Shown here piece after piece: positions 7,960 through 61,945 of a stretch of DNA of 64,000 nucleotides (position 1 is its first letter; the number at the start of each line of letters is the position of its first letter). The notes under the pieces were generated by a model that saw nothing but the letters and a program-made list of their open reading frames with translations, was not told the DNA's origin and did not search any database. A program made the translations under genes and the position numbers. The stretch comes from a candidate division WOR-3 bacterium (GTDB lineage: Bacteria; Hydrothermota; Tepidihabitantia; SM23-42). The stretch spans positions 138,637-202,636 of the forward strand of contig JAOUFJ010000002.1 of the NCBI GenBank assembly GCA_029858255.1, read 5' to 3'.

Positions 7960-8523
7960 ATGGCCAAGAAAAAAATTGCATCTAAAATACCAGTCTACCC
8001 GATGCCGGTTATGATTGTCGGTGCAGAAGTAGAGAACAAACCCAATTTTCTAACTGTGGTATGGTTCAGTATGGTCAATTTCAAACCACCGACCATTGCT
8101 GTCATCCTCAACAAAGCACATTATACTAATAAAGGCATATACAAGAATAAAACATTCAGTATCAACATCCCGACGACACAACTGATCGAGGCCACTGACT
8201 ACTGCAGTGTTGTCTCTGGCTATGACCATGATAAATCAAAAGTATTCGACGTATTCTACGGTGAATTGAAGAACGCACCGATGATTCAGGAATGCCCGCT
8301 CACTGCTGAGTGTCGGGTCATACAAACACTTCAATTCGCGACGCATGAGGTGTTCGTGGGCGAAATCGTCAAAACCTATGCAGATGACGCGGTATTAACC
8401 CACGAACATCCTGACATAGCAAAAATCAAACCGATCCTCTATTCAATGTATGACAACTGTTATTGGGAAATGGGCAAAAGTATCGGACGAGCGATGCATA
8501 TTGGCAAACGGTTAAAAACATAG
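7960..8523 (+). CDS. Flavin reductase-like (FMN-binding split-barrel) protein
   Basis: 187 aa. 'PVMIVGAEVENKPNFLTVVWFSMVN' is typical of the flavin reductase domain. Confidence 0.55.
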   Translation: MAKKKIASKIPVYPMPVMIVGAEVENKPNFLTVVWFSMVNFKPPTIAVILNKAHYTNKGIYKNKTFSINIPTTQLIEATDYCSVVSGYDHDKSKVFDVFYGELKNAPMIQECPLTAECRVIQTLQFATHEVFVGEIVKTYADDAVLTHEHPDIAKIKPILYSMYDNCYWEMGKSIGRAMHIGKRLKT

Positions 8524-15856: not shown

Positions 15857-17014
15857 ATGATAATCAGACACCGCTTGAGTTCAAGAGCCCTGGCAATATA
15901 CTTCCTGATCGGCATTGCACTCATAGGCATCGTTACTTACATTTATTCGAACTACCTGATTCAGCGCATAAGAACGGAAACGGAAACGACTTCACGCCTC
16001 TTCGCAGAATTTGCACGTGGACCCAGTATCGACGAAGAGCGTCTTCTGGAGCTATTCTACGAAATGGTTATCAAGCGGATCGATTTTCCCGTGATACTGA
16101 CCGATGCCGAAGGGACACCCTATTCATCCAAGAATGTAGAAGAAAAAGACCTGGACAAAGCCGTGGAGAAGCTGGATCGCGTGCAAAGACCAATCCCCAT
16201 GGTGATCCGACAGGGTGCAGATTCGACACTACTCGGCCACGTGCACTGGGGATTGTCCCCCTTCACCAAATCACTGCAGATCCTGCCATTTGTTGAAACC
16301 GTATTTCTGATAGCTTTTCTCTTTCTTGGCTTTTGGGGCTATCTGATTTACCGCAAGAGCATCGAAGAAAAAATTTGGAATTCCCTCGCAAAAGAAACGG
16401 CTCATCAACTGGCAACACCTTTGTCTTCGCTCATTGGCTGGCTTGAGACGATAAAAGGAAACATAGATATTGAGGTATACAAGGGGATTCATGAAGACGC
16501 TATGCGGATGCGTGAAGTTCTCGAGAAATTCTCCCGTATCGGTCTCCCGCCGCGATTAGTTGAGAAAGACCCAACCGACGCGGTGAAAAACTCGGTGGAC
16601 TACATAAGGAGACGTGCCCATTCAAAAATAAAATTCACCGAGAAATACGGACGATTGCCCGCAGTCAGATTCGATGATGTTCTACTTGGATGGGCAATAG
16701 AAAATATTTTGAAAAACGGGTTGGATGCAATTGGTGACCAGTCCGGTGAAATATCAATTAAAACCAGAAAATATGAAACTTCTGGAGCGATTATCGAGAT
16801 AACGGACACTGGGAGGGGCATCAAAAGCAGCGGGAACATATTCAAACCGGGTTATACGACGAAGAAGTACGGGTGGGGACTGGGTCTGGTTCTTACAAAG
16901 AGGATCATCGAGGAATACCACGAAGGAAAATTATCTCTAAAGGAAACAAGTTCAAAGGGAACATGTTTTGAAATCTACATACCGGGAGTGAAAAATGAAA
17001 ATTCTTTGGATTGA
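15857..17014 (+). CDS. Sensor histidine kinase (2 TM plus HisKA/HATPase), PorY-like partner of the downstream PorX-like regulator
   Basis: H-box 'HQLATPLSSLIGW'. G-boxes 'DTGRGI...GWGLGL'. Overlaps the regulator gene by 20 nt (translational coupling). Confidence 0.7.
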   Translation: MIIRHRLSSRALAIYFLIGIALIGIVTYIYSNYLIQRIRTETETTSRLFAEFARGPSIDEERLLELFYEMVIKRIDFPVILTDAEGTPYSSKNVEEKDLDKAVEKLDRVQRPIPMVIRQGADSTLLGHVHWGLSPFTKSLQILPFVETVFLIAFLFLGFWGYLIYRKSIEEKIWNSLAKETAHQLATPLSSLIGWLETIKGNIDIEVYKGIHEDAMRMREVLEKFSRIGLPPRLVEKDPTDAVKNSVDYIRRRAHSKIKFTEKYGRLPAVRFDDVLLGWAIENILKNGLDAIGDQSGEISIKTRKYETSGAIIEITDTGRGIKSSGNIFKPGYTTKKYGWGLGLVLTKRIIEEYHEGKLSLKETSSKGTCFEIYIPGVKNENSLD

Positions 17015-18503
17015 TGACGAAATAGATCTGCTGAAACCATTCATCTACCTCCTGCAGAAAGAGGGCTACGAGGTGAAAACAGCACCCAGCGGAGAAGACG
17101 GTGTGAATATGGCAAACAAGGAACAATTTGACCTGATTTTCTTAGATGAAATAATGCCCGGAGTTGACGGTCTGGAGGTGCTTAGAAAAATAAAAAGCGA
17201 GAGCTCACAACAACTCGTTGTAATGGTTACAAAAAGCGAAGAAGAAGATCTGATGACTCAGGCATATGGCGGTTGGGTCGATGACTATATAACAAAACCA
17301 TTCAGTTTCAACCAGTTACTTTCAGTATTGAATCGCACATTAAAACGCCGCGTGATTATCGAAGAAAAAATGGCGGAAGAGTATTCAACCCAGCTACGGA
17401 CAATGATAGAACCGACCGGATATAGCGACTGGATTGAATATTATCGAAATATTGTATCATGGGACACGCGCCTTTTAGAATTCGGAAGCAAAGATCTTAA
17501 GACGATCCATGAGGAGAAAAAACGGGAAGGCAACGCCGGCTTCGCCAAATTCATTGAGAGCCAGTACTCCAGTTTTCTCAAAGGCAAAGGACCCATCTTG
17601 TCTCACCAGATCTTCTCGCACCTTGTTTTTCCTACATTAAACGACGGGCCAATCTACTTTGTAATCTTTGATTCGATGCGCCTCGACCAGTACATGAAGT
17701 TGATCCCCTTTCTGAAAGACTACTATGAGATAAACAATCACTACTACTATTCGATACTGCCGACTGCCACACCGTACTCAAGGAACTCTATATTCGCAGG
17801 ATTGCTGCCTCTCGATATTGTACAGCTGTATCCTCAATACTGGACTTACGATGAGAAAGGGCAGAACAGATTCGAACGCGATCTGTTCAATGAGCAATTG
17901 AAGCGCAACAACTTACGGGTTAATTTCTCCTTCTACAAACTATCGTCAATTTCCGAAATAGAGAGAAGCATTGAAAAAATAAAGGGAGAATCAACCGAGA
18001 TAGTCATCATAGTCATTAACTTCTTTGACATGCTTATCCATTCCATTCCCGGCAGAGGCGATATGAAAGGTATACTTGACGATGAACGTGTACTGCTGAA
18101 TATACTGGCATATTGGTTCCCCCTGTCGCCGATTTTCGAATTATTCAAGAGTCTACTGGTCAATGATAGGAGGGTCATACTGACCACCGACCATGGTTTC
18201 ATAAGGGTGCGCCGGCCTACCATTATCTACGGGGGACGCGAGATATCGCCAAACCTTCGCTACAAATACGGCCCGGCTTTGAGGGTAGACAAGAAAACTG
18301 CGTTGCTCCTGAACAGTCCAGGAGACATCTGCTTGCCGAGTGAAGATCCTTCGGTCCGATTTGCCATTGCCAAAGAAGATCACTACTTCATCTATCCAAC
18401 GAAGCCGACCGAGTACGAAAGGGAATTCAAGTACACATTCCAGCACGGCGGTATATCCACCGAGGAAATGATCCTTCCGGTAGGAATACTGAAACCAAGA
18501 TAA
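16995..18503 (+). CDS. Response regulator with CheY-like receiver and C-terminal PglZ/alkaline-phosphatase-superfamily domain (PorX-like T9SS regulator)
   Basis: Receiver 'KILWIDDEIDLL...DLIFLDEIMPG'. The 350-aa C-terminal domain resembles PglZ, as in Porphyromonas PorX. Confidence 0.7.
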   Translation: MKILWIDDEIDLLKPFIYLLQKEGYEVKTAPSGEDGVNMANKEQFDLIFLDEIMPGVDGLEVLRKIKSESSQQLVVMVTKSEEEDLMTQAYGGWVDDYITKPFSFNQLLSVLNRTLKRRVIIEEKMAEEYSTQLRTMIEPTGYSDWIEYYRNIVSWDTRLLEFGSKDLKTIHEEKKREGNAGFAKFIESQYSSFLKGKGPILSHQIFSHLVFPTLNDGPIYFVIFDSMRLDQYMKLIPFLKDYYEINNHYYYSILPTATPYSRNSIFAGLLPLDIVQLYPQYWTYDEKGQNRFERDLFNEQLKRNNLRVNFSFYKLSSISEIERSIEKIKGESTEIVIIVINFFDMLIHSIPGRGDMKGILDDERVLLNILAYWFPLSPIFELFKSLLVNDRRVILTTDHGFIRVRRPTIIYGGREISPNLRYKYGPALRVDKKTALLLNSPGDICLPSEDPSVRFAIAKEDHYFIYPTKPTEYEREFKYTFQHGGISTEEMILPVGILKPR

Positions 18504-18632: not shown

Positions 18633-18867
18633 GGATCTCGATTCACGATATTGAACCTGCACGTATCTAGTATCTTTCACTACCTGAAGTAATACGAATA
18701 CGAAATACGATCAACGATTACGAAACCGTATCGCTTCTCCGAACCGTCAAGCGTTACACGATTCGTTTTGAACGTCCCGACCCAACAACCATCTGCGTCA
18801 TTATTGGTGCCGATTATATCTGGCTCCCCATGCGCCACGATATTAACGGGCAAAACGTCGTTGTTTA

Positions 18868-18935
18868 TGTCATTTGTATTTAAGATTTTGAATTTGTTTA
18901 GTAATTCGATATTAGGATTTCGGATTTGAGGTCCC
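18868..18935. repeat. Dispersed AT-rich intergenic repeat, family B, copy 1
   Basis: 'CATTTGTATTTAAGATTTTGAATTTGTTTAGTAATTCGATATTAGGATTTCGGATTTGAGG'. Compare 28903, 46755 and 58062. Confidence 0.6.
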
Positions 18936-19042
18936 GGGTTTCGTTACCGTAACCGCCCAATGTCGCCTGTCAAAAATGTGGGGTCTCTACCGGAGGGCGA
19001 AATATCAAATTACCAAAAAAATAAAGTAGAGACCCCGATTTT

Positions 19043-21112
19043 CTATTCTGGAGCAAAAGTGAAAGGAATTGACACCCTCTGTTCAAAAGAAGTGCCGTCT
19101 TTCGTAGCAGGATTGAATTCCCACTGACGGGCGGCAGCCAGTGCAGCCTGCTCACACGCTGGATTGCCAAAACTCTTGATGATTGTAGCATCCTTGACCG
19201 ACCCGTTAGTACCAACGAGAACTCGTACAACAATCGTACCAGAAGCTGCAAACTCGAGAGCGGCAGCAGGATACTTGGGCTGGACGCGCCTGACAGCCTC
19301 CGCACGTGTGATGACGGAAGGTTTAGGAGGTGCGGGCGGCAGCTCGGCCACAAGCGACGCGGACCCGGTATCGGCAACCGCTGTATCACTTTGTGCTGCT
19401 GCCTCAAGAAGTCTCTCAGGTGCGATCACTGAAGGCGGTTCCTCCCTGGCCGTTCCTGTGGTTTCGAGGACAGCTGGCAGAGATGTAACACCCGACGTCC
19501 CTTCTGTTGACGTCTCGGTTGGAGGAATTGCCGATGCCAGGCTGACTCTACGTTCTGCTTCAGGGATCCAATACTCGGTTGCGTTCGCCAATCGCACCTC
19601 ATGGTCAATACCCCTTACTCGCTTGTAAGTCGCGGCGATCCTGTCAGGTACTACAAGAAAAGAATAGGGTTGTTCCTCATAAACGACCTTCTGGAACTCA
19701 TTCCAGACGGCTCTTGCCTTATTACGATCCAGCATGGAAATGCCTGCATCGATTAATGAATCTACAAGCGCGTTGGAATAGGACACAAGGTTATACCGAC
19801 CTTTTGAATGCCAATACAGGGTCGGGTCGATTTTATCACCGACGCGCCAGCCCATCACGAAACCATCGAATTGCCTGTCCACAAGAACGTTCACAAAATC
19901 ATTTGCCGCGAGTGTCTGCGTAATCACTCTTATACCAATCTTCTGCAGATCATCTGCAATGTAGCGCAATATGGCGAGTCGGTCAGGGTTTTCCGAGTTG
20001 GTGATGATTCTGACCGTAAAGTCCGTTCGATCCTTGTCAATTACCCTATTACGATTGTAGTCCACGAAACCCTGTTCCCGCAATAGAGAACGGGCTCCTT
20101 CTATATCATAGATAATAGGATGAACTTCAGAATTATATGCCCACGACGATGGGGGTAACGGTCCCAATGAAATCTCCCCCCTACTGCCGTAGATGTCGCT
20201 CAGTATCCGCTGTCTGTCAATAGCCATCGCTAATGCCTTACGCACGCGCACATCCTTCAGAAACGGATGAGTCAGGTTCCATCCAATATAAAGATAGGAA
20301 CTACCAGGTTCAGAATAGATACCGACATTATCATTATTCCTAATTGCTTCTGCAGTACTGGGTGTAATATTAAACATCATTTCCAGATCGCCGTCCCGAA
20401 AATCTTCCAGCATTTCATTTGTGCTCCTGTAATGCCTGATCCGTATCTCATCTAGGGGTGGCCGGCCGTCATAATAGGTTTCGTTGGCAACCAGTATCAT
20501 CACTGAACCCCGAACCCATTCTTCCACACGATAAGGTCCATTACCAGTAGGCGATGCACCGAACTCACTACCGAGTTGTTCGTTGATATGTCTGGGCACT
20601 GGCATGATGTCCGAATCAGTCAAAATATCCGCGTATACCTTGTCAAATGTGAATTTTATCGCGTAATCACCGAGCACCTCAACCTTATTAATAAAACGGA
20701 GCGCATTGATATTCGGATAATTATTCGAGGGCTCCTTCATCTGCTCGTAAGTGTAGAGCACATCATACGCTGTCACCGGTTCCCCATCCCACCATTCAAC
20801 ACCTTTTCTTAAATAATACGTAATTGATTTCAAGTCTTCCGAAAATTCCCATGACTCAGCAAGAACTGGCCTCATTTTGCCGGTTCCCGGATCGATCTCA
20901 TGGAGGCGCAAGAAAAGTAAGTCGAGGATTTCATTGGACGTGAATACCGACGGTTCAAGCGGACTGATTACCGCAGGGATTTCCATAGTACCTACAGTCA
21001 AAATTCCACCGGGCTCACCGTCGAATCTTTCGACCTTACCCTGGCAGGAAAAAAACACGAATACAAGAAGCACAGTGGCAATTGGCAAACGTCGCATATC
21101 AGCCTCCTTCAT
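19043..21112 (-). CDS. Lipoprotein fusion: signal peptide with lipobox, family-5 solute-binding domain (SBP_bac_5, oligopeptide-type), Pro/Ala-rich linker and TonB C-terminal domain
   Basis: N-terminus 'LLVFVFFSC'. C-terminus 'PPAPPKPS...VQPKYPAAALEFAASGTIVVRVLVGTNGSVKDATIIKSFGNPACEQAALAAARQWEFNPA' matches the TonB_C consensus. Confidence 0.65.
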   Translation of the reverse strand: MKEADMRRLPIATVLLVFVFFSCQGKVERFDGEPGGILTVGTMEIPAVISPLEPSVFTSNEILDLLFLRLHEIDPGTGKMRPVLAESWEFSEDLKSITYYLRKGVEWWDGEPVTAYDVLYTYEQMKEPSNNYPNINALRFINKVEVLGDYAIKFTFDKVYADILTDSDIMPVPRHINEQLGSEFGASPTGNGPYRVEEWVRGSVMILVANETYYDGRPPLDEIRIRHYRSTNEMLEDFRDGDLEMMFNITPSTAEAIRNNDNVGIYSEPGSSYLYIGWNLTHPFLKDVRVRKALAMAIDRQRILSDIYGSRGEISLGPLPPSSWAYNSEVHPIIYDIEGARSLLREQGFVDYNRNRVIDKDRTDFTVRIITNSENPDRLAILRYIADDLQKIGIRVITQTLAANDFVNVLVDRQFDGFVMGWRVGDKIDPTLYWHSKGRYNLVSYSNALVDSLIDAGISMLDRNKARAVWNEFQKVVYEEQPYSFLVVPDRIAATYKRVRGIDHEVRLANATEYWIPEAERRVSLASAIPPTETSTEGTSGVTSLPAVLETTGTAREEPPSVIAPERLLEAAAQSDTAVADTGSASLVAELPPAPPKPSVITRAEAVRRVQPKYPAAALEFAASGTIVVRVLVGTNGSVKDATIIKSFGNPACEQAALAAARQWEFNPATKDGTSFEQRVSIPFTFAPE

Positions 21113-28760: not shown

Positions 28761-28835
28761 TGGGCCCGGAGGGACTCGAACCCCCGACCCGCTGATTATG
28801 AGTCAGCTGCTCTAACCAACTGAGCTACAGGCCCC
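28761..28835 (-). tRNA. tRNA-Met (anticodon CAT). It could alternatively be lysidine-modified tRNA-Ile2.
   Basis: Minus-strand sequence GGGGCCTGTAGCTCAGTTGGTTAGAGCAGCTGACTCATAATCAGC...GGGGGTTCGAGTCCCTCCGGGCCCA. Standard cloverleaf. Loop CTCATAA. Confidence 0.8.
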
Positions 28836-28902
28836 ACTACCATACGGCAAATTATAGTCAAGAACAGAGTTTTGTCAATCAACCACTCAAAATCTAGAAG
28901 AT

Positions 28903-28975
28903 GCTGTTTTGATCATTTGAATTTTGAGATTCGTATTTGTTTAGTATTTAGAATTTCTGATTTAGGACTTGGCTT
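28903..28975. repeat. Family B repeat, copy 2, next to tRNA-Met
   Basis: 'TGTTTTGATCATTTGAATTTTGAGATTCGTATTTGTTTAGTATTTAGAATTTCTGATTTAGGACTT'. Confidence 0.65.
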
Positions 28976-29045
28976 GGCCAGCCATAGCCATTGGCCTAAT
29001 TAACTCGGGTGAGGCCGTCTTGACTAGCACTCGTATTGTTTTATA

Positions 29046-29879
29046 ATGTCCCAGGCTAAGCCAATGTTAGTAAACGAAGTCAAATGCAAATCAATACTCA
29101 ATAAATCAGGCATTTCAGTCATTGACTACGCAATTAACCCCTATTATGGATGTGCCCACAAATGCCAATACTGCTATGCCGTCTTCATGAAGAGATTCAC
29201 CGGACATACAGAACCTTGGGGTGACTTTGTCGATGCAAAGGTGAACGGTCCGGAAGTGCTGGCACAGCAGCTCCAAAGACTGAAAAAGCGCAGCCGGATC
29301 TCATTCGGCACAGTCTGCGACCCTTACCAACCACTTGAATTAAAATATCAAATAACTCGAAAATGTCTTGAAATATTAATACCTTACCGCCATCGTGTAT
29401 CCATTTTGACAAAGTCGGCGATCGTCATTCGTGATGCCGACGTTCTGCGTAGGCTTTACAAGGTAAGGGTTAGTTTCACAATAACATCTATGGAAGAGAA
29501 GGTCAGAAAAGTATTTGAGCCGGCCACGCCTTCAGCAGAAATGAGATTCAAGGCGCTCCGAACACTCAGTCAGGATGGGATAAACACCAGCGTATTTGTC
29601 GCACCTGTCATCCCCTATATCTCTGATTCGCCCACTGCAATTGCTGATATCTTTAAAGCAGCCAGAAGTGCCGGCGCCGATTATGTGATGTTTGATACTC
29701 TGAATCCTTACCCAAAGGTGTGGCGCAATGTCCAGAGGCTCGTTAAGAACCAATTTCCTGACAAATTCGAATCCTTCAATACGTATTATACAAACCGGAA
29801 AATGTACAAAGTGCGCTTGCGGGAAAGGATCCGTAGTCTCGGAGAGAAATATCGCATAGACTACAGATTCGCTTTTTAG
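29046..29879 (+). CDS. Radical SAM protein, SPL/DNA-photolyase-like (COG1533-type)
   Basis: 'GCAHKCQYCYA' cluster-binding motif near the N-terminus. Confidence 0.55.
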   Translation: MSQAKPMLVNEVKCKSILNKSGISVIDYAINPYYGCAHKCQYCYAVFMKRFTGHTEPWGDFVDAKVNGPEVLAQQLQRLKKRSRISFGTVCDPYQPLELKYQITRKCLEILIPYRHRVSILTKSAIVIRDADVLRRLYKVRVSFTITSMEEKVRKVFEPATPSAEMRFKALRTLSQDGINTSVFVAPVIPYISDSPTAIADIFKAARSAGADYVMFDTLNPYPKVWRNVQRLVKNQFPDKFESFNTYYTNRKMYKVRLRERIRSLGEKYRIDYRFAF

Positions 29880-34297: not shown

Positions 34298-35764
34298 TCA
34301 AGGATTATCCGTGGTTTCCTTCCGCAATTGCGGAAAGAGTATGACATCGCGGATCGATGGAAGGTTGAGGAGAACCATGCACAGACGGTCAATACCGATA
34401 CCAATACCGCCCGTCGGTGGCATACCATGTTCGAGGGCACGAATGAAGTCCTCATCGATCTGCCGAATACCATCTTCATGGTGCGCAATTTGAGCCTCGA
34501 AACGTATTCGCTGCTCCATTGGGTCATTCAGTTCGGAAAACGCGTTGGCAATCTCCACCCCGAACATAATGAATTCAAATCGTTCGACAAGACGCTCATC
34601 AGTGCGATGCGTCTTGGCAAGGGGCGATATCATCTTAGGATAGTCGATCACGAAAGTGGGCTCCATGAGCTCTTTCTGCACCAGTTCACCGAAGAGTTTG
34701 TCGATCTTCGAACCAAGCGAGAGTTTTTTGCAGTCTATACCGTGGCGCTCGCATTGCCTGTCAATTTCGGAGTCTTGCACATCAAGCACATCTATCCCCA
34801 ATTTGCTTTTCAGGGCTTCAGTGTATTTCACTCTCCTGAATGGCCGTCGAAATTCGATCTCCCTCTCCAGGAATTTCAACCTATTTTCATTACTTCTCTG
34901 TTTTACAAGGAACTCCATTAAATGTTCAACCAATTCCATTATGTCATTATAGTCTGAATATGCCTGGTACAATTCGAGCATTGTGAATTCGGGATTATGC
35001 ATGCGGTCTATACCTTCGTTACGGAAATCACGACACACTTCGTAGACTTTTTCTAGGCCTCCGACGATCAACCTTTTTAAGTATAATTCATCCGCGATCC
35101 GCAGGAACATATCCTGTTCAAGGGCATTGTAGTATGTCTTGAAAGGATTAGCCGCCGCACCCCCGTATATCGATTGAAGCACCGGCGTCTCGACTTCCAT
35201 AAACCCGCGTTCGTCCAGGAAAGTGCGCATCAAAGATATCAATTGAGTTCTTTTCCTGAAACTATCCCTGACTTCGGGATTAGCGATCAGATCAAGATAA
35301 CGCTGGCGATAGCGGATCTCGATATCCTTCAGGCCATGCCATTTTTCTGGTAATGGACGCAAAGCCTTAGAAAGAAGCACATAGTCGTCGACAAGCACGG
35401 TTATTTCACCCGTCTTCGTTTTGAAAACACTGCCGTTCACCCCGACAAAATCACCAGCATCGAAATACTGAAAAAGTTCGAACTTTTCCGCAAGTTTGTC
35501 CTTTCTGAAATACAACTGTACACGCTCAGATTCATCAGACAGTGTAGCAAAGAGAGTCTTGCCGTGGCCGCGAACTGTAATAATTCGTCCACATGTCCGG
35601 ATCTTCTCTTCAGTTTTACTCAATGTCTCGAACTGCGTTTTTATCTGTTGAAAATTGTGTGAACGGTCGAATTTGTAGGGATATGGATTTACTCCTAATT
35701 CTTTCAATTTATTGAGTTTTTTCAGCCGCTCTTCCATCCCAGAATGATACACCAAATCAACCAA
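34298..35764 (-). CDS. lysS: Lysine--tRNA ligase (class II)
   Basis: Motif 2 'RDFRNEGIDRMHNPEFTMLELYQAY'. OB-fold N-terminal region. ~490 aa. Confidence 0.85.
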   Translation of the reverse strand: MVDLVYHSGMEERLKKLNKLKELGVNPYPYKFDRSHNFQQIKTQFETLSKTEEKIRTCGRIITVRGHGKTLFATLSDESERVQLYFRKDKLAEKFELFQYFDAGDFVGVNGSVFKTKTGEITVLVDDYVLLSKALRPLPEKWHGLKDIEIRYRQRYLDLIANPEVRDSFRKRTQLISLMRTFLDERGFMEVETPVLQSIYGGAAANPFKTYYNALEQDMFLRIADELYLKRLIVGGLEKVYEVCRDFRNEGIDRMHNPEFTMLELYQAYSDYNDIMELVEHLMEFLVKQRSNENRLKFLEREIEFRRPFRRVKYTEALKSKLGIDVLDVQDSEIDRQCERHGIDCKKLSLGSKIDKLFGELVQKELMEPTFVIDYPKMISPLAKTHRTDERLVERFEFIMFGVEIANAFSELNDPMEQRIRFEAQIAHHEDGIRQIDEDFIRALEHGMPPTGGIGIGIDRLCMVLLNLPSIRDVILFPQLRKETTDNP

Positions 35765-35778
35765 AAGTCAATACGAAA

Positions 35779-35820
35779 ACGTTAATTGCGTTACTTTCGT
35801 TAATCTCGTTAATTTCGTTT
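35779..35820. repeat. Family A repeat copy in the lysS / hypothetical divergent promoter region
   Basis: 'CGTTAATTGCGTTACTTTCGTTAATCTCGTTAATTTCGTT'. Confidence 0.5.
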
Positions 35821-35930
35821 CTCATCTTCATATCCTCTCATCTTCTTAACTTCTGTGTTTCTCCGTACCACCGTGTCTTCCAGTCTCAGCTTCTCCGTTT
35901 CTCAGTGGCCTTTACGGGACGTACCTTCTC

Positions 35931-45564: not shown

Positions 45565-46599
45565 ATGACTGAAAGCAAGAAGAAAGGCATACTTGCCACG
45601 GTCAAATGCGCGGGCTGAGCTTCGAAACTCTCAGCTGCGCAGTTGGCGCAGGCACTAGCATATTTGCCATCGGTTGAGGATCCTGACCTGCTGGTTGGTA
45701 CGAATACCGCAGACGACGCAGGTGTCTACCGTCTGAACGACGAGCTTGCATTGGTTAAAACGATCGACATTCTCACACCCGTCGTCGAGGACGCGCACAC
45801 TTTCGGCATGATCGCTGCAGCGAACTGCATATCGGACATCTACGCAATGGGCGGTGATCCCAAGTTGGCGCTCAACATCGTTGGGTATCCGGGCATGGGT
45901 GACCCCAAAATCCTCGGTGAAATGCTAAAAGGCGGCAATGACAAGGCGCGGGAAGCCAGCGTCACGACCATCGGCGGTCACACCTTTGCCTCGCCCGAAG
46001 TTATGTATGGTCTTTCAGTTTTAGGCTATATCCATCCCCTGAAAATAATCACGAATGCAGGGGCAAAAACTGACGATGTAATTATCCTGACGAAACCAGT
46101 TGGCGTTGGCACCATAATCCAGGCAATGCTTTTGGATAAAGATGAGGGTATAGACATGAAATCCGTTATAGATTCAATGACCACATTGAATCGAGATGCG
46201 TCAATTGCTATGCGCGCGGCCGGTGCGCACGGTGCGACCGACGTCACGGGATACGGTCTTATCGGTCACCTCGTTGAAATGAGCGAAGCGAGCAAATCAG
46301 GTATCGAAATTTCGCTGCAAAAAATACCAGTACACAAAGGGGCCGTGGAAATTCTGGATCGAGGCATCTTCGAACCAGGTATCACGATGAATCTGAATTC
46401 TTTCAGCAACCGCGTGGATAAGGGCGATAGTGATTCAAATCTTGTCAATTTGATCTTCGGCTCGGAGACTTCTGGCGGGTTGATCATTGCCCTGCCTGAA
46501 GAACGGCTCGAAGTATTCAAACAAAACTACAAAAAAGATTTTGCTGTCATTGGCCGCGTGACAAAGGAAAACGCCGGCCGGGTGACACTGATCCCGTAA
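45565..46599 (+). CDS. selD: Selenide, water dikinase (selenophosphate synthetase), Sec-containing form. In-frame TGA at 45616-45618.
   Basis: ATG 45565 gives 'MTESKKKGILATVKCAG[U]ASKLS...LLVGTNTADDAGVY...AAANCISDIYAMGGDP...DVTGYGLIGHL'. The TGA aligns with Cys17/Sec of SelD 'GAGCGCK'. The ORF-track TTG start at 45643 lies downstream of the catalytic residue. Confidence 0.85.
45619..45651 (+). promoter_or_regulatory. SECIS-like stem-loops immediately 3' of the selD UGA
   Basis: GCTGAG-cttcgaaact-CTCAGC (45614-45635), then CTGCGC-AGTTG-GCGCAG (45635-45651). Loop with G-U about 23-27 nt from the UGA. Confidence 0.55.
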
Positions 46600-46754
46600 C
46601 GACGCGAACCTAATTTCCCAAAAATTTGCCATCGCAGGACTAGAAAGAAATTTCGAATCCGTCACACAGGTCGTAACTCGTATTCGTAATTCGTATTCGT
46701 GAATGTCAAAATAGAGAAGAGTAGTAATGTAAGTTTCGTTGTCCACTGTTTCGG

Positions 46755-46815
46755 TCATTAGAATTTTGGTATTGGTTATTGTTTAGCATTTCGTGCTTCG
46801 AATTTAGAATTTGGC
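46755..46815. repeat. Family B repeat, copy 3 (more diverged), downstream of selD
   Basis: '...TTGTTTAGCATTTCGTGCTTCGAATTTAGAATTTGG'. Confidence 0.45.
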
Positions 46816-46905
46816 GAGCAGACCACATTAATTGGCTGGAGCAATCAGCTGCAGATTGTCCTTGACACATTCATAATCCGGGCTATAGTTAGACAGGAGG
46901 TGGTT

Positions 46906-47145
46906 ATGCCAAAATATCTAATTACCCTTCCAAAAATGCCCAAAGAGCAAATAATCACATCTTGAAAGGCGGTTGTTACCGCTTCCGGAGGAAGCAAAAT
47001 CTGCATGGACAAAGCTTATATAGACGAAGAAAACAGTCAGGCGATCTGCTGTTGGAGTGCTCCTGACCGCAAAAGCCTCGAAGAATTATTCGCCAAGGCG
47101 AATGTGCACGTGGAATCAATAAGGAGCGTCACCGAATACAAATAA
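46906..47145 (+). CDS. Candidate small selenoprotein (79 codons, DUF4242-like C-terminal half), in-frame TGA at 46963-46965
   Basis: GGAGG RBS 5 nt before ATG. 'MPKYLITLPKMPKEQIITS[TGA]KAVVTASGGSKICMDKAYIDEENSQAICCWSAPDRKSLEELFAKANVHVESIRSVTEYK'. Hairpin AGGCGGT-TGTT-ACCGCTT just after the TGA. A terminator follows. Confidence 0.4.
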
Positions 47146-56657: not shown

Positions 56658-58058
56658 GTGAAGGATGCCATGAAAACTAAAGAAATACTGAGAAATATTC
56701 CATCGGTGGATAAAATCCTTAACTGGGATGAAATAAAGGAATCTCTCAAAATCCTCAACCAAGACCATATAACCAGGATCATACGCGATAACGTAGAAAA
56801 CTACCGAAAACTTCTGATTGCCGGTGAAAAAATCGACGATAGTCGTTTGAAAAAAGCAATCTTAGCCGATATCCAGGATCTTATCACTCCCTATTTCTGC
56901 TATGCGGTCAATGCGCTCGGTATTGTTTTGCATACGGGATTGGGCCGTGCACCGTTTAACAAACACATTGCAGAAGTCATCCATGATATGTCCATGGGCT
57001 ATTCACGGTTGCAAATCGATGATGATGGAAAGCGGGCTGACCGCTACAAGAAGATCAATCGCTTGCTTCAGATCTTAACCGGGGCCGAAGCCGGGATCAT
57101 CGTCAACAACAACGCTGCCGCAACAATGCTCATCCTCAGTGCAATGGCAAAAGGCAAAGAGGTAATCGTGTCAAGGGGTCAACTCATTGAGATCGGTGGA
57201 GCATATCGTATTCCAGACATAATGGCGCAGAGCGGTGCGATAATGCACGAAATAGGCACAACCAATAGAACACATCTTAAGGACTATACAGGAGCAATAA
57301 ATGAGAACACAGGTGCGATACTGCGCGTGCACCAGTCAAACTACCGTATTATTGGCTTCACCAAAGAAGTCCCATTGGATGAGCTTGTCGAACTGGGGAG
57401 AAAACACAATATCCCGGTTATCGATGACCTGGGAAGCGGAGCGCTGATCGATTTTGCCGCATATGGACTGCCCAAAGAACCTATGGTACAAGAGAGCATC
57501 GCCACGGGAGCTGACGTAGTCTGTTTCAGCGGCGATAAACTGATCGGCGGACCACAATGCGGAATTATTATCGGTAAGAGGCAACATATAGAGTTAATAA
57601 AGAAAAACCCGCTTACCCGGGCGCTGAGATGCGATAAACTAACTAATGCTGCATTAGAAGCCACGCTTCAAATGTTTCTGCTCAAAGAGGAAGATTTAGT
57701 ATTAAATCACGCCGTTTTGGGCATTTTACTTAAACCATTAGATGAAATAAAATCTCGCGCGAAGCGTTGTGCGAGAGGTCTGAAAGCTGCATTTGGCAGC
57801 ATCCTCGAGGTATCTGTACGCTCGGGCGTCAGTGAGATTGGCGGAGGTTCACTCAGTACAGAACAGCTGCCCACCTATCTGGTGGCTATCAAATCACAAG
57901 ATATCGCGGCAAGCGATCTGGCACATGCCCTGCGGCGATACCAAACACCGGTTTTTACCAGGGTTGCCGAAGACAGTGTTCTCCTCGACTTCCGCACCGT
58001 TGTGAAGGGCGAGGAAAAGATAATACTTGAAGCCTTCAAGACAGTCCTCAAAATCTGA
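56658..58058 (+). CDS. selA: L-seryl-tRNA(Sec) selenium transferase
   Basis: 'IIVNNNAAATMLILSAMAKGKEVIVSRGQLIEIGGAYRIPD...HEIGTTNRTH...FSGDKLIGGPQCGII' aligns with SelA, including the PLP-lysine region. Confidence 0.9.
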   Translation: MKDAMKTKEILRNIPSVDKILNWDEIKESLKILNQDHITRIIRDNVENYRKLLIAGEKIDDSRLKKAILADIQDLITPYFCYAVNALGIVLHTGLGRAPFNKHIAEVIHDMSMGYSRLQIDDDGKRADRYKKINRLLQILTGAEAGIIVNNNAAATMLILSAMAKGKEVIVSRGQLIEIGGAYRIPDIMAQSGAIMHEIGTTNRTHLKDYTGAINENTGAILRVHQSNYRIIGFTKEVPLDELVELGRKHNIPVIDDLGSGALIDFAAYGLPKEPMVQESIATGADVVCFSGDKLIGGPQCGIIIGKRQHIELIKKNPLTRALRCDKLTNAALEATLQMFLLKEEDLVLNHAVLGILLKPLDEIKSRAKRCARGLKAAFGSILEVSVRSGVSEIGGGSLSTEQLPTYLVAIKSQDIAASDLAHALRRYQTPVFTRVAEDSVLLDFRTVVKGEEKIILEAFKTVLKI

Positions 58059-58061
58059 TCA

Positions 58062-58130
58062 TGTGTTTTGATCATTTGTATTTTACATTTTGGATTTGCT
58101 TAGTATTTAGATATTCGAATTTAGGATTTT
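58062..58130. repeat. Family B repeat, copy 4, in the selA-selB spacer
   Basis: 'TGTTTTGATCATTTGTATTTTACATTTTGGATTTGCTTAGTATTTAGATATTCGAATTTAGGATTTT', about 80% identical to copy 2. Confidence 0.65.
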
Positions 58131-60114: not shown

Positions 60115-60203
60115 CACTTCAGGTTGCGTACAACGAATAACGAAGTCCAGCATCATACGGTCACGAAACCCGTACAACGGTAATATCACACAGCACACGA
60201 GCA

Positions 60204-60420
60204 CGCCGTTAATCCCGTTATTATCGTTATTCCCGCTAACGACTTATACCTCTGCCCTCACGGCAAGAAACGAATATCTTCGATGGAGTATCTAAACACG
60301 AAATGCTGTTCTACCCTTATGAACAATTGGAACGAATACGATCTACGAACACGAATTACAAAGGCATATCGTAACGAAGCCACAACGATACTAGCGATAT
60401 TAACGATAATAACGAACAAA
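60204..60420. repeat. Family A repeat pair in inverted orientation (60204-60242 forward, 60385-60420 reverse) within the 360-bp selB-M48 intergenic region
   Basis: 'CGCCGTTAATCCCGTTATTATCGTTATTCCCGCTAACG' versus the reverse complement of 'TAGCGATATTAACGATAATAACGAAC'. Confidence 0.5.
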
Positions 60421-60474
60421 ACGTTTTCGTACCATTGGGTCTTGATTTCCCCGATTTATCCATTATAATTATGT

Positions 60475-61292: not shown

Positions 61293-61706
61293 CTAAGCAT
61301 CTTCGGTCTTAGGCGTGGTCTTTGCTCTCTCCTCGAGTTTTCGCATGAGAGAATTAAGCATCTTCCCTACATCAGTGCACGTCTCAATCCACGGTTTCAC
61401 GATTTCGTTTTCCATACAATGACAATCGGCAAGTTTGATAAGCCAATTCTCTGTTTCTGCAGCACTGCAGTGCGCCGTTTCAAGGTATCGAACATATTTT
61501 CTGCGGCCCCTCGAATAGAATCCCTCAGCAATGCTCGCACTGATGTTCCCGGAGCTCCTCAGTAGCTGCTCAAGGATGATCCCAGCTGTTGTCGTCCGCG
61601 GCAGTTTGTCTATCGTATGGTATATCGACACGAATAGATCATGTGACTTCTGCCACACTCTCAGGTCTGTAAAATGCTTTATCGTTTTGTGCTCATTAGG
61701 TTCCAT
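61293..61706 (-). CDS. Four-helix-bundle protein (23S rRNA intervening-sequence-protein family). Start taken at the internal 'MEPNEHK'.
   Basis: Family-typical 'FTDLRVWQKSHDL...RSSGNISASIAEGFYSRGRRKYVRYLETAHCSAAETENWL'. Confidence 0.55.
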   Translation of the reverse strand: MEPNEHKTIKHFTDLRVWQKSHDLFVSIYHTIDKLPRTTTAGIILEQLLRSSGNISASIAEGFYSRGRRKYVRYLETAHCSAAETENWLIKLADCHCMENEIVKPWIETCTDVGKMLNSLMRKLEERAKTTPKTEDA

Positions 61707-61851: not shown

Positions 61852-61945
61852 TGGCGGAGGCGTGTAGGAATCGAACCTACCGTCCCCCTTTCGAAGGACA
61901 TCCGGGTTTGAAGCCCGTCAGGCACACCAGCACCCATCCGCCTCC
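61852..61945 (-). tRNA. selC: tRNA-Sec (anticodon UCA), about 94 nt, CCA encoded
   Basis: Minus strand GGAGGCGG-A-TGGGTGCTGGTGTGCC-TGA-CGGG-CTTCAAA-CCCG-...-GTCC-TTCGAAAGG-GGAC-GG-TAGG-TTCGATT-CCTA-CA-CGCCTCC-G-CCA. Long acceptor, long variable arm, anticodon TCA. Confidence 0.85.

Follow-up and report, generated by a model that had tools for sequence, protein, structure and literature searches.

The question raised by this 64,000-nucleotide stretch of a candidate division WOR-3 genome (positions 138,637 to 202,636 of contig JAOUFJ010000002.1, assembly GCA_029858255.1; hereafter "the window") is what a short AT-rich repeat, designated Family B, is doing in four of its intergenic spacers, among them the spacer between selA and selB. 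A sequence-only reading of the same DNA had proposed a common promoter or UP-element module, small RNA genes of one family, or something MITE-like (MITE, miniature inverted-repeat transposable element). The comparisons described here make it fairly probable that the four copies (c1 to c4, Table 1) are solo arms of a selfish element similar to the intervening sequences (IVSs) of bacterial 23S rRNA genes, an element built from heptad-repeat arms and a four-helix-bundle gene, and that they are passengers in this genome.

The four copies are a genuine sequence family. Their alignment is gap-free over 66 nt, 40 of its columns are invariant, and pairwise identities range from 68 to 82%; the roughly 80% identity claimed earlier for c2 and c4 was measured as 80%. 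All of them are intergenic (4/4 in 64 kb), and an nhmmer profile built from them returned only c1–c4 from the whole window, with E-values from 1.6e-15 to 4.9e-14, the next match having an E-value of 0.35. A search for the 3′ half with a degenerate 34-nt pattern and up to two mismatches allowed likewise found only the c1–c4 sites, against 0.00 matches expected from 100 shuffles. The sequence consists of about nine degenerate, T-rich heptads with the consensus RATTTMG, whereby the self-identity reached 0.53 at lag 7 and 0.47 at lag 14, compared with 0.24–0.32 at the off-period lags 2–5 and 9–12. A T-rich, repetitive sequence with a 7-nt period might in principle be nothing more than a chance similarity of low-complexity, AT-rich spacer DNA. 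This explanation has next to no probability left in view of the 40 invariant columns, the profile E-values near 1e-14 against 0.35, the zero expected pattern matches and the conservation, in 134 copies from outside the window, of the 5′ half on which no selection had been made.

These external copies came from a scan with the 3′-half pattern over one genome per species, which gave at least 120 loci and from which a second, cross-phylum profile was then built with the 134 copies (L-numbers below are locus labels, L129–L163 being IMG/VR contigs). The search pattern did not include the 5′ half. The window copies match the cross-phylum profile with E-values from 2e-12 to 3.2e-11 over model positions 6–78. 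The outer end of the arm, ..GGATTT, is sharp, and the information content falls to zero right after it. Among the matches listed, to which the counts of carriers, pairs, strands and spacers given below also refer, all carriers from the pattern scan are genomes assembled from metagenomes (MAGs) or from single cells. The bacterial ones belong to the candidate phyla radiation (CPR)/Patescibacteria, Omnitrophota, Planctomycetota, Desulfobacterota ("Deltaproteobacteria"), Nitrospirota, Chloroflexota, Acidobacteriota, Elusimicrobia, WOR-3, Stahlbacteria and some Gammaproteobacteria and Bacteroidota bins, and there are two archaeal carriers, a Methanophagales bin and a closed Thermoplasmata chromosome. 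The GC content of the hosts spans 29–67%. The arm was also present in 35 viral contigs (L129–L163). About 20 of these 35 represent a single phage group with an SPP1-type portal protein (e.g., L159:5852-7411 and L138:1030-2313). An adapter, amplification or assembly artefact was rejected, as the copies differ from each other by 20–30%, keep reading frames when inside genes and are present in a single-cell genome as well as in closed chromosomes from long reads. The selenium neighborhood, in which the first reading had placed three of the copies, has no special link to the family, which is found in unrelated contexts across many phyla. No description of the arm family was found in the literature by sequence or by topic, within an incomplete coverage.

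The usual state of the family is not the solo arm. The listed loci contain 236 arms by the 134-copy profile, of which 137 have a head-to-head partner and 99 are solo; 76 of the 86 close neighbor pairs are arranged head-to-head, with the minus-strand arm first, the plus-strand arm second and the junction ..CAAAAC/GTTTTG.. between them. The resulting imperfect palindromes are 97–235 bp long (median near 136 bp) and fold with z-scores from −3.3 to −8.9. Since the head-to-head palindrome is the usual form, the window copies are half-elements. The earlier statement that the repeat is not palindromic thus holds for c1–c4 (fold z from −0.2 to +1.0) and fails for the family, which elsewhere consists mostly of inverted pairs. 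No partner arm was found at c1–c4 with either the window or the cross-phylum profile, and no PF05635 open reading frame (ORF) or pseudogene remnant of an intervening-sequence protein (IVP) adjoins them. Beyond the 66 nt, c1–c4 share no homology downstream, and upstream only the 10-mer CTCAAAATCT is common to c2 and c4, at a near-equal distance from both (flank local alignment p ~0.03 against shuffles). This is weak evidence that the 10-mer upstream of c2 may be what is left of the center or inner end of a partner arm since lost, and that the one upstream of c4 may be a partner-arm remnant as well.

Outside the window, the palindromes often occupy the entire spacer between complete, unrelated, co-directional genes, and a split-gene or intron reading was discarded on the ground that the flanking ORFs are complete and unrelated. 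The spacer types (67 tandem, 12 convergent and 12 divergent) correspond to the random intergenic expectation, and the downstream gene lies on the same strand as the copy in 57 cases and on the opposite strand in 51. No target-site duplication, direct repeat or target motif was detected at the outer ends of 60 palindromes.

Several copies reside inside genes. The leucyl-tRNA synthetase (LeuRS) gene of a Patescibacteria MAG (JAOAEC010000008.1, L045:427-3234) contains three in-frame insertions, namely two solo arms and one full palindrome, with all Pfam domains intact around them. Other in-frame arms were found in SecA, between the domains of a transketolase, in a MacB/FtsX permease and in a PMT_2 protein, one in each; they add peptides such as ..ILNPKSEILNKSQI.., and no Pfam family corresponds to the arm-encoded peptides. 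Four AT-rich palindromes lie within the large-subunit (LSU) rRNA gene (Rfam score 1318 bits) of a Saccharibacteria MAG (CAZUCU010000009.1, L035:3425-6545). They are flanked by short GC hairpins; in the three that were read by sequence, such a hairpin stands on both sides, and the outer stem bases match between left and right, e.g., CCGTGC-ATA-GCACGG ... CCGTGC-TGTA-CACGG. A GC hairpin right past the ..GGATTT end is also seen at many CPR copies elsewhere. The inverted ends and the apparent array in L035 had suggested integron attC sites; this candidate was dropped because the "array" is a 23S rRNA gene and because the arm sequence is conserved, unlike that of attC sites. The in-frame copies inside bona fide genes mean that efficient termination of transcription or destruction of the mRNA is no general property of the element.

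The gene that belongs to the arms emerged from an all-against-all clustering of 1172 ORFs of the carrier loci, in which a phage module and PF05635 came up as the recurrent clusters. No recurrent transposase was present among these neighboring ORFs (the ten largest clusters were annotated). Three of the 1172 ORFs are bracketed by a minus-strand and a plus-strand arm: two are PF05635 genes (L037:281-667 and L090:6244-6606), and the other (L048) only sits between two separate palindromes. A third PF05635 gene abuts one arm. The second and third of the arm-linked PF05635 proteins are 63% and 72% identical to the first, in comparison with 17–35% for other paralogues, the one encoded in the window included. 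All three match TIGR02436 ("four helix bundle protein") and PDB 2RLD and have no transposase domain. A metagenome search with the alignment of the three proteins gave at least 573 coding stretches, and the best 80 loci were examined. An upstream arm was present in 66 of the 75 testable loci, with 68 of 72 such arms on the minus strand, and it overlaps the first codons of the gene, reading M..IQNSKQ. A downstream arm follows 0–10 nt past the stop codon in 71 of 77 testable loci, 76 of 80 such arms being on the plus strand; both sides are occupied in 60 of 72. Complete units have a modal length of 472–473 bp, with the ends AAAT(C/T)C...GGATTT. They are placed in at least 48 unrelated flank contexts with a flank GC of 26–68%, and none of the metagenome loci examined has the unit within rRNA. 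The outer ends of 57 long forms showed neither a target-site duplication nor a clear target motif.

The protein subfamily of the long form is very large: a threshold of E ≤ 1e-20 gave at least 7927 clusters, and the best 120 of them are 70–89% identical to the query. Among the source names are WOR-3, Nitrospirota, Euryarchaeota and Methanophagales, and the arms were confirmed around the gene in contigs of WOR-3 SM23_42 and Methanophagales. The Methanophagales unit sits between two glutamate-synthase genes. In WOR-3 SM23_42 (LJUJ01000001.1, L248:2880-3460), the long form, its left arm partly lost, lies directly past the 3′ end of a tRNA gene, with a terminator-like hairpin after it. Distant homologues annotated as four helix bundle protein (at most 37% identity) are encoded on plasmids of cultured bacteria, again with inverted heptad arrays on both sides of the gene: (AATTCAA)4 and (TTTTGAA)4 arrays with 100% complementarity in Nostoc flagelliforme, CAGTNNN units in Chondrinema, AATCCCC/AATCGTA versus ACGATTT/TGGATTT heptads in Planktothrix, and GAAGANN units in Pseudanabaena. 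A literature search of incomplete coverage found no paper linking heptad arrays to four-helix-bundle genes.

The IVSs of Coxiella burnetii and Leptospira resemble the long form in having inverted arms that make a stem around a small PF05635/TIGR02436 four-helix-bundle gene. In Coxiella, the IVS is described as a selfish element with an S23p ORF and an inverted-repeat stem cut by RNase III; a variable number of tandem heptameric GACAGAT repeats precedes the ORF, for which a role in mobility is suspected and unproven (PMC4990558). Variable-number tandem heptads by the ORF are a feature common to the IVS and to the family described here; the IVS is regarded as selfish and horizontally transferred (PMC4990558), and so is the family in the reading preferred here. 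A further likeness is given by the ORF-less copies inside the 23S rRNA gene of L035. Unlike the classical IVSs, which are described from 23S rRNA helices, the long forms are found outside rRNA in their 48 or more contexts, the window copies are intergenic single arms without an ORF, and short forms are scattered over spacers as well as coding genes. The heptad also differs (RATTTMG instead of GACAGAT).

The sequence of events that would account for these forms is as follows. The element would be, or would once have been, mobile and horizontally transferred; the short palindromes would be derivatives of the long form without its ORF, solo arms would arise when one of the two arms is lost, and the number of heptads would shift by slippage. 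That the four-helix-bundle protein recognises the heptad arms is a guess. In the window, the arms would be passengers, c4 being carried along in the selA–selB spacer and c2 and c3 lying upstream of independent promoters.

Table 1. Features of the window discussed in the text (E-values are from nhmmer; promoter scores are matches out of 12).
Feature	Position	Strand	Remark
Response-regulator/PglZ gene	16995-18503	+	Left neighbor of c1
ACG/CGT-rich array	18655-18774		
c1, solo 66-nt arm	18862..18927	+	E 4.9e-14 (window profile), 8.8e-12 (cross-phylum profile)
Perfect long hairpin	18979-19036		GGGGTCTCTAC ... GTAGAGACCCC
SBP_bac_5/TonB_C gene	19043-21112	-	Right neighbor of c1, convergent (its end faces c1)
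tRNA-Met	28761-28834	-	Beside c2
Promoter of tRNA-Met	28878-28851	-	Sigma-70 type, 12/12, outside c2
10-mer CTCAAAATCT	28886..28895	+	10 nt upstream of c2
c2, solo arm	28905..28970	+	E 5.4e-15; divergent spacer tRNA-Met/radical-SAM gene
Promoter on radical-SAM side	29020-29047	+	11/12, outside c2
Radical-SAM gene	29046-29879	+	Beside c2
ACG/CGT-rich array	35748-35838		
selD-like gene	45643-46599	+	Beside c3
ACG/CGT-rich array	46638-46738		
c3, solo arm	46747..46812	+	E 1.6e-15; between selD-like gene and small putative selenoprotein gene
Promoter downstream of c3	46862-46889		11/12, outside the arm
Small ORF, putative selenoprotein gene	46906-47145	+	Downstream of selD and c3; own 11/12 promoter, AGGAGG ribosome-binding site
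10-mer CTCAAAATCT	58047..58056	+	Upstream of c4, overlapping last selA codons and stop
c4, solo arm	58064..58129	+	E 4e-15; selA–selB spacer
ACG/CGT-rich array	60117-60187		
ACG/CGT-rich array	60311-60445		
ACG-rich inverted pair	60216-60238 / 60392-60414		selB–M48 spacer
PF05635/TIGR02436 gene	61296-61706	-	The only one in the window; beside tRNA-Sec
tRNA-Sec	61852-61945	-	

The SelB protein encoded in the window is 100% identical to one from a candidate division WOR-3 bacterium, and the history of the copies was followed in relatives. In the selA–selB spacer, the arm is present and in register in L125/126 and L127/128 (SelB 80% identical in both), has a 32-nt internal deletion consistent with the loss of whole heptads in L123/124 (85%), is replaced by an ACG-rich array in L001 (87%) and is lacking in L002 (79%). 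Orthologous copies of c3 occupy the same place in L001 (538-603) and L127/L128 (1567-1638). The copies c3 and c4 are therefore old residents of the selD and selA–selB spacers, and the window copies in general are old, variable in length and dispensable, yet near the common consensus, which may be kept up through selection, gene conversion among many copies or repeated replacement. A (T)CATG-type motif ending in ATG (58059-58063 in the window) was observed past the selA stop in every relative (L001, L002, L123–L128), with or without the element; where a Family B arm is present, it always starts right after this motif. The window SelA, ending in ..FKTVLKI*, is one residue shorter than those of L001 and L002; endings seen in relatives are ..FKAILRTT* and ..FKTIMKAT*.

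A number of points weigh against regarding the copies as passengers left by a selfish element. The copies c3 and c4 are found at orthologous sites in relatives whose SelB proteins are only 80–87% identical, and c4 has kept 65% identity to its orthologues, whereas the adjoining 60 nt have only 30–32%; neutral passengers should have decayed. Copies from one locus have a mean identity of 0.71, and copies from different loci across phyla one of 0.69, which looks like a constraint held everywhere and not like descent from recent bursts. Target-site duplications and target motifs were looked for at the ends of palindromes and long forms without success, and mobility is deduced rather than demonstrated, because the cargo protein is not a known recombinase. 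The 64-kb window contains neither a palindrome nor a long form. Its PF05635 gene is of another subfamily (18% identity to the arm-bracketed proteins) and has no flanking arms. Finally, all four aligned copies are on the plus strand, which is not significant with n = 4.

Some of these observations also speak for arms maintained by the host as cis-elements, i.e., as binding-site arrays, in DNA or RNA, for an S23p-family protein or another widely shared factor. Such arms would be under selection in spacers like selA–selB and selD–selenoprotein, where they might, for example, organise, protect or tune the expression of the flanking genes. The retained positions of c3 and c4 and the retained heptad register of c4, with randomised flanks, would fit this, as would a single consensus over hosts of 29–67% GC with almost no within-genome signal. 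A TIGR02436 protein is moreover encoded in the window and, by synteny, in the relatives, the PF05635 gene following the M48 peptidase gene in the same position in all relatives examined. However, the selA–selB copy can be absent (L002), replaced (L001) or half deleted (L123/124), neither strand nor spacer type departs from randomness in the family as a whole, and copies are tolerated in essential coding genes and rRNA, which is a poor fit to a specific regulatory role. Host-maintained cis-elements, the main alternative, are thus considered unlikely, and solo arms of an IVS-like selfish element are preferred.

The arms were further examined as promoters. According to the sequence-only reading, the copies always sit just 3′ of a stop codon or tRNA. 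This is correct for c4, which starts 5 nt past the selA stop (58058) and ends 65 nt ahead of the selB ATG (58195); the distances are 147 nt from the selD-like stop at c3 and 358 nt from the nearest stop at c1, and c2 is placed upstream of tRNA-Met, not 3′ of it, because this tRNA is on the minus strand. The stretches once likened to the TAnnTTTG of Bacteroidetes sigma-A promoters proved to be no such sites: the motif TTTG-N18-22-TAnnTTTG is absent from c1–c4, and its one match in the window (8475-8508) compares with 1.0 expected by chance. The near-consensus promoters beside c2 and c3 are of the TTGACA/TATAAT type. A shared promoter or UP-element module that drives or boosts the downstream gene would be in keeping with the AT-richness of the arm, with a weak promoter-like match (9/12) inside c3 (46783-46810) and with the outer end lying often 0–27 nt from an ORF start in other genomes, although these short distances are partly an artefact of choosing the longest ORF. 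It would also be in keeping with the ends of c2 and c3, each of which stops 49 nt short of a −35 hexamer; but the two spacers (28971-29019 and 46813-46861) are unrelated in sequence, and their equal length is probably a coincidence. The strong promoters are all outside the element, no promoter-like site was found near c1 or c4, and c1 has no downstream gene on the plus strand. Together with the roughly 50:50 orientation of the family and the copies inside coding genes and rRNA, this makes a promoter function very improbable.

A small RNA gene family or a structured cis-regulatory RNA would agree with copies that are conserved, intergenic and multiple, and the GGA-containing, U-rich heptads may be seen as superficially like the repeats of protein-binding small RNAs. 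Against this, none of the four copies folds beyond its shuffles (z of −0.22, 0.44, 0.99 and 0.25 for c1 to c4), and co-folding of c1 with the ACG-rich array upstream of it gave a z of 0.09 and no hybrid pairing. Three tRNAs were the only Rfam matches at gathering threshold in the whole window, and permissive Rfam scans of c4 and of one full palindrome returned nothing except sub-threshold, chance-like matches to miRNA precursors and snoRNAs. Neither a promoter nor a terminator belongs to the copies themselves, and solo arms in tandem spacers show no preference relative to transcription (21 sense, 14 antisense). An RNA function of this kind is hardly credible, and the IVS-like solo arm remains the favored explanation. 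The sequence-only reading was right that the copies are not simple terminators: a scan for GC hairpins with T-runs was negative for c1–c4, with no terminator-like site at c1 or c4 and none overlapping c2 or c3. A terminator reading of the family was likewise rejected, given the copies inside LeuRS, SecA and 23S rRNA genes. A perfect long hairpin was noticed in the interval that separates c1 from the end of its convergent neighbor (Table 1); it is probably the terminator of that gene and was missed by the simple scan because its loop is long.

The third of the original proposals, a MITE-like element, was partly borne out. In common with MITEs, the family is small, non-coding, multi-copy and mostly intergenic, has inverted arms and possesses a longer ORF-carrying relative with the same ends; a dispersed arm, inverted pairs and insertions in spacers, genes and rRNA speak for the likeness as well. 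Terminal inverted repeats, however, belong to the paired form and are absent from the solo copies of the window, the search for target-site duplications was negative, the long form has an ORF that encodes no known transposase, and the arms make up the whole element. MITEs have been described as taxon-specific in a survey of RefSeq genomes, unlike the present family, which crosses phyla and domains (PMC11602168).

Three other repeat classes were compared. The repetitive extragenic palindromic sequences (REPs) and their inverted doublets (REPINs) resemble the family in that inverted doublets are the main unit, with solo copies alongside, and in being intergenic; both lie in operon spacers and would therefore be co-transcribed as hairpins. 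REPs are short, GC-rich, species-specific and tied to the gene of a REP-associated tyrosine transposase (RAYT), whereas the arms here are 66 nt long, AT-rich, composed of heptads and tied to a four-helix-bundle gene. Rickettsia palindromic elements (RPEs) are palindromes of about 100–150 bp that occur in spacers and in frame within protein genes, to which they add a peptide segment. By description, this is like the family members placed in frame in LeuRS, SecA, transketolase and MacB/FtsX genes; no copy in the window is within a gene. No sequence relation between RPEs and the family is known. RPEs occur only in Rickettsia and lack an ORF-carrying form, in contrast to the present family with its many host phyla and its four-helix-bundle long form. 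The short tandemly repeated repetitive (STRR) heptamers of cyanobacteria are, like Family B, tandem heptanucleotide arrays in spacers, and the plasmid arrays of Nostoc, Planktothrix and Pseudanabaena flank four-helix-bundle genes in inverted orientation. The heptad sequences differ, and the association of STRR-like arrays with the gene is an observation made here on four loci.

The window contains a second kind of repetitive spacer DNA, the ACG/CGT-rich low-complexity arrays (TACGAAT, CGTTATT), which are intergenic and include an inverted pair (Table 1). The selB–M48 spacer that contains this pair in the window has a Family B palindrome in L125/126. The ACG-rich units resemble the ACGATTT heptads around the Planktothrix four-helix-bundle gene, and the arrays may be a sister family of heptad arms. 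The small ORF downstream of c3 reads MPKYLITLPKMPKEQIITS-[TGA]-KAVVTASGG..., with an in-frame TGA at 46963-46965 and the stop at 47143-47145. L001 has the TGA in a conserved context as well, and the part downstream of it is marked there as SCO4226-like. The ORF probably encodes a selenoprotein with selenocysteine at codon 20.

For the bacterium itself, the four copies are probably inert. For the family, a single non-coding arm consensus of 66 nt extends from CPR bacteria to archaea of the anaerobic methanotrophic (ANME) type and is tolerated in LeuRS, SecA and 23S rRNA genes. In practical terms, the arms yield spurious small ORFs (e.g., ..FRISDLGFRI.. and ..ILNPKSEI.. peptides), can be mistaken for promoters or small RNAs during the annotation of MAGs and probably break assemblies, because many carrier contigs are only 0.5–2 kb long. 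A wider proposal, less likely than not, is that S23p/IVP genes and inverted heptad arrays might form one large class of transposase-less selfish elements in Bacteria, Archaea and phages, which would unify the IVSs of 23S rRNA, the STRR-like arrays and the RPE-like insertions in essential genes, until now regarded as separate matters; the protein would recognise the arms and promote their spread or upkeep, and the Family B copies, and probably the ACG-rich arrays, would be footprints of this class. To our knowledge, the function of PF05635/TIGR02436 proteins has had no answer since the 23S rRNA IVSs were first described. If the link between arm and protein is true, the nature of the IVSs and the role of S23p would become addressable in cultured cyanobacteria with the same architecture. 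The window copies taken alone are ordinary; the family behind them is not.

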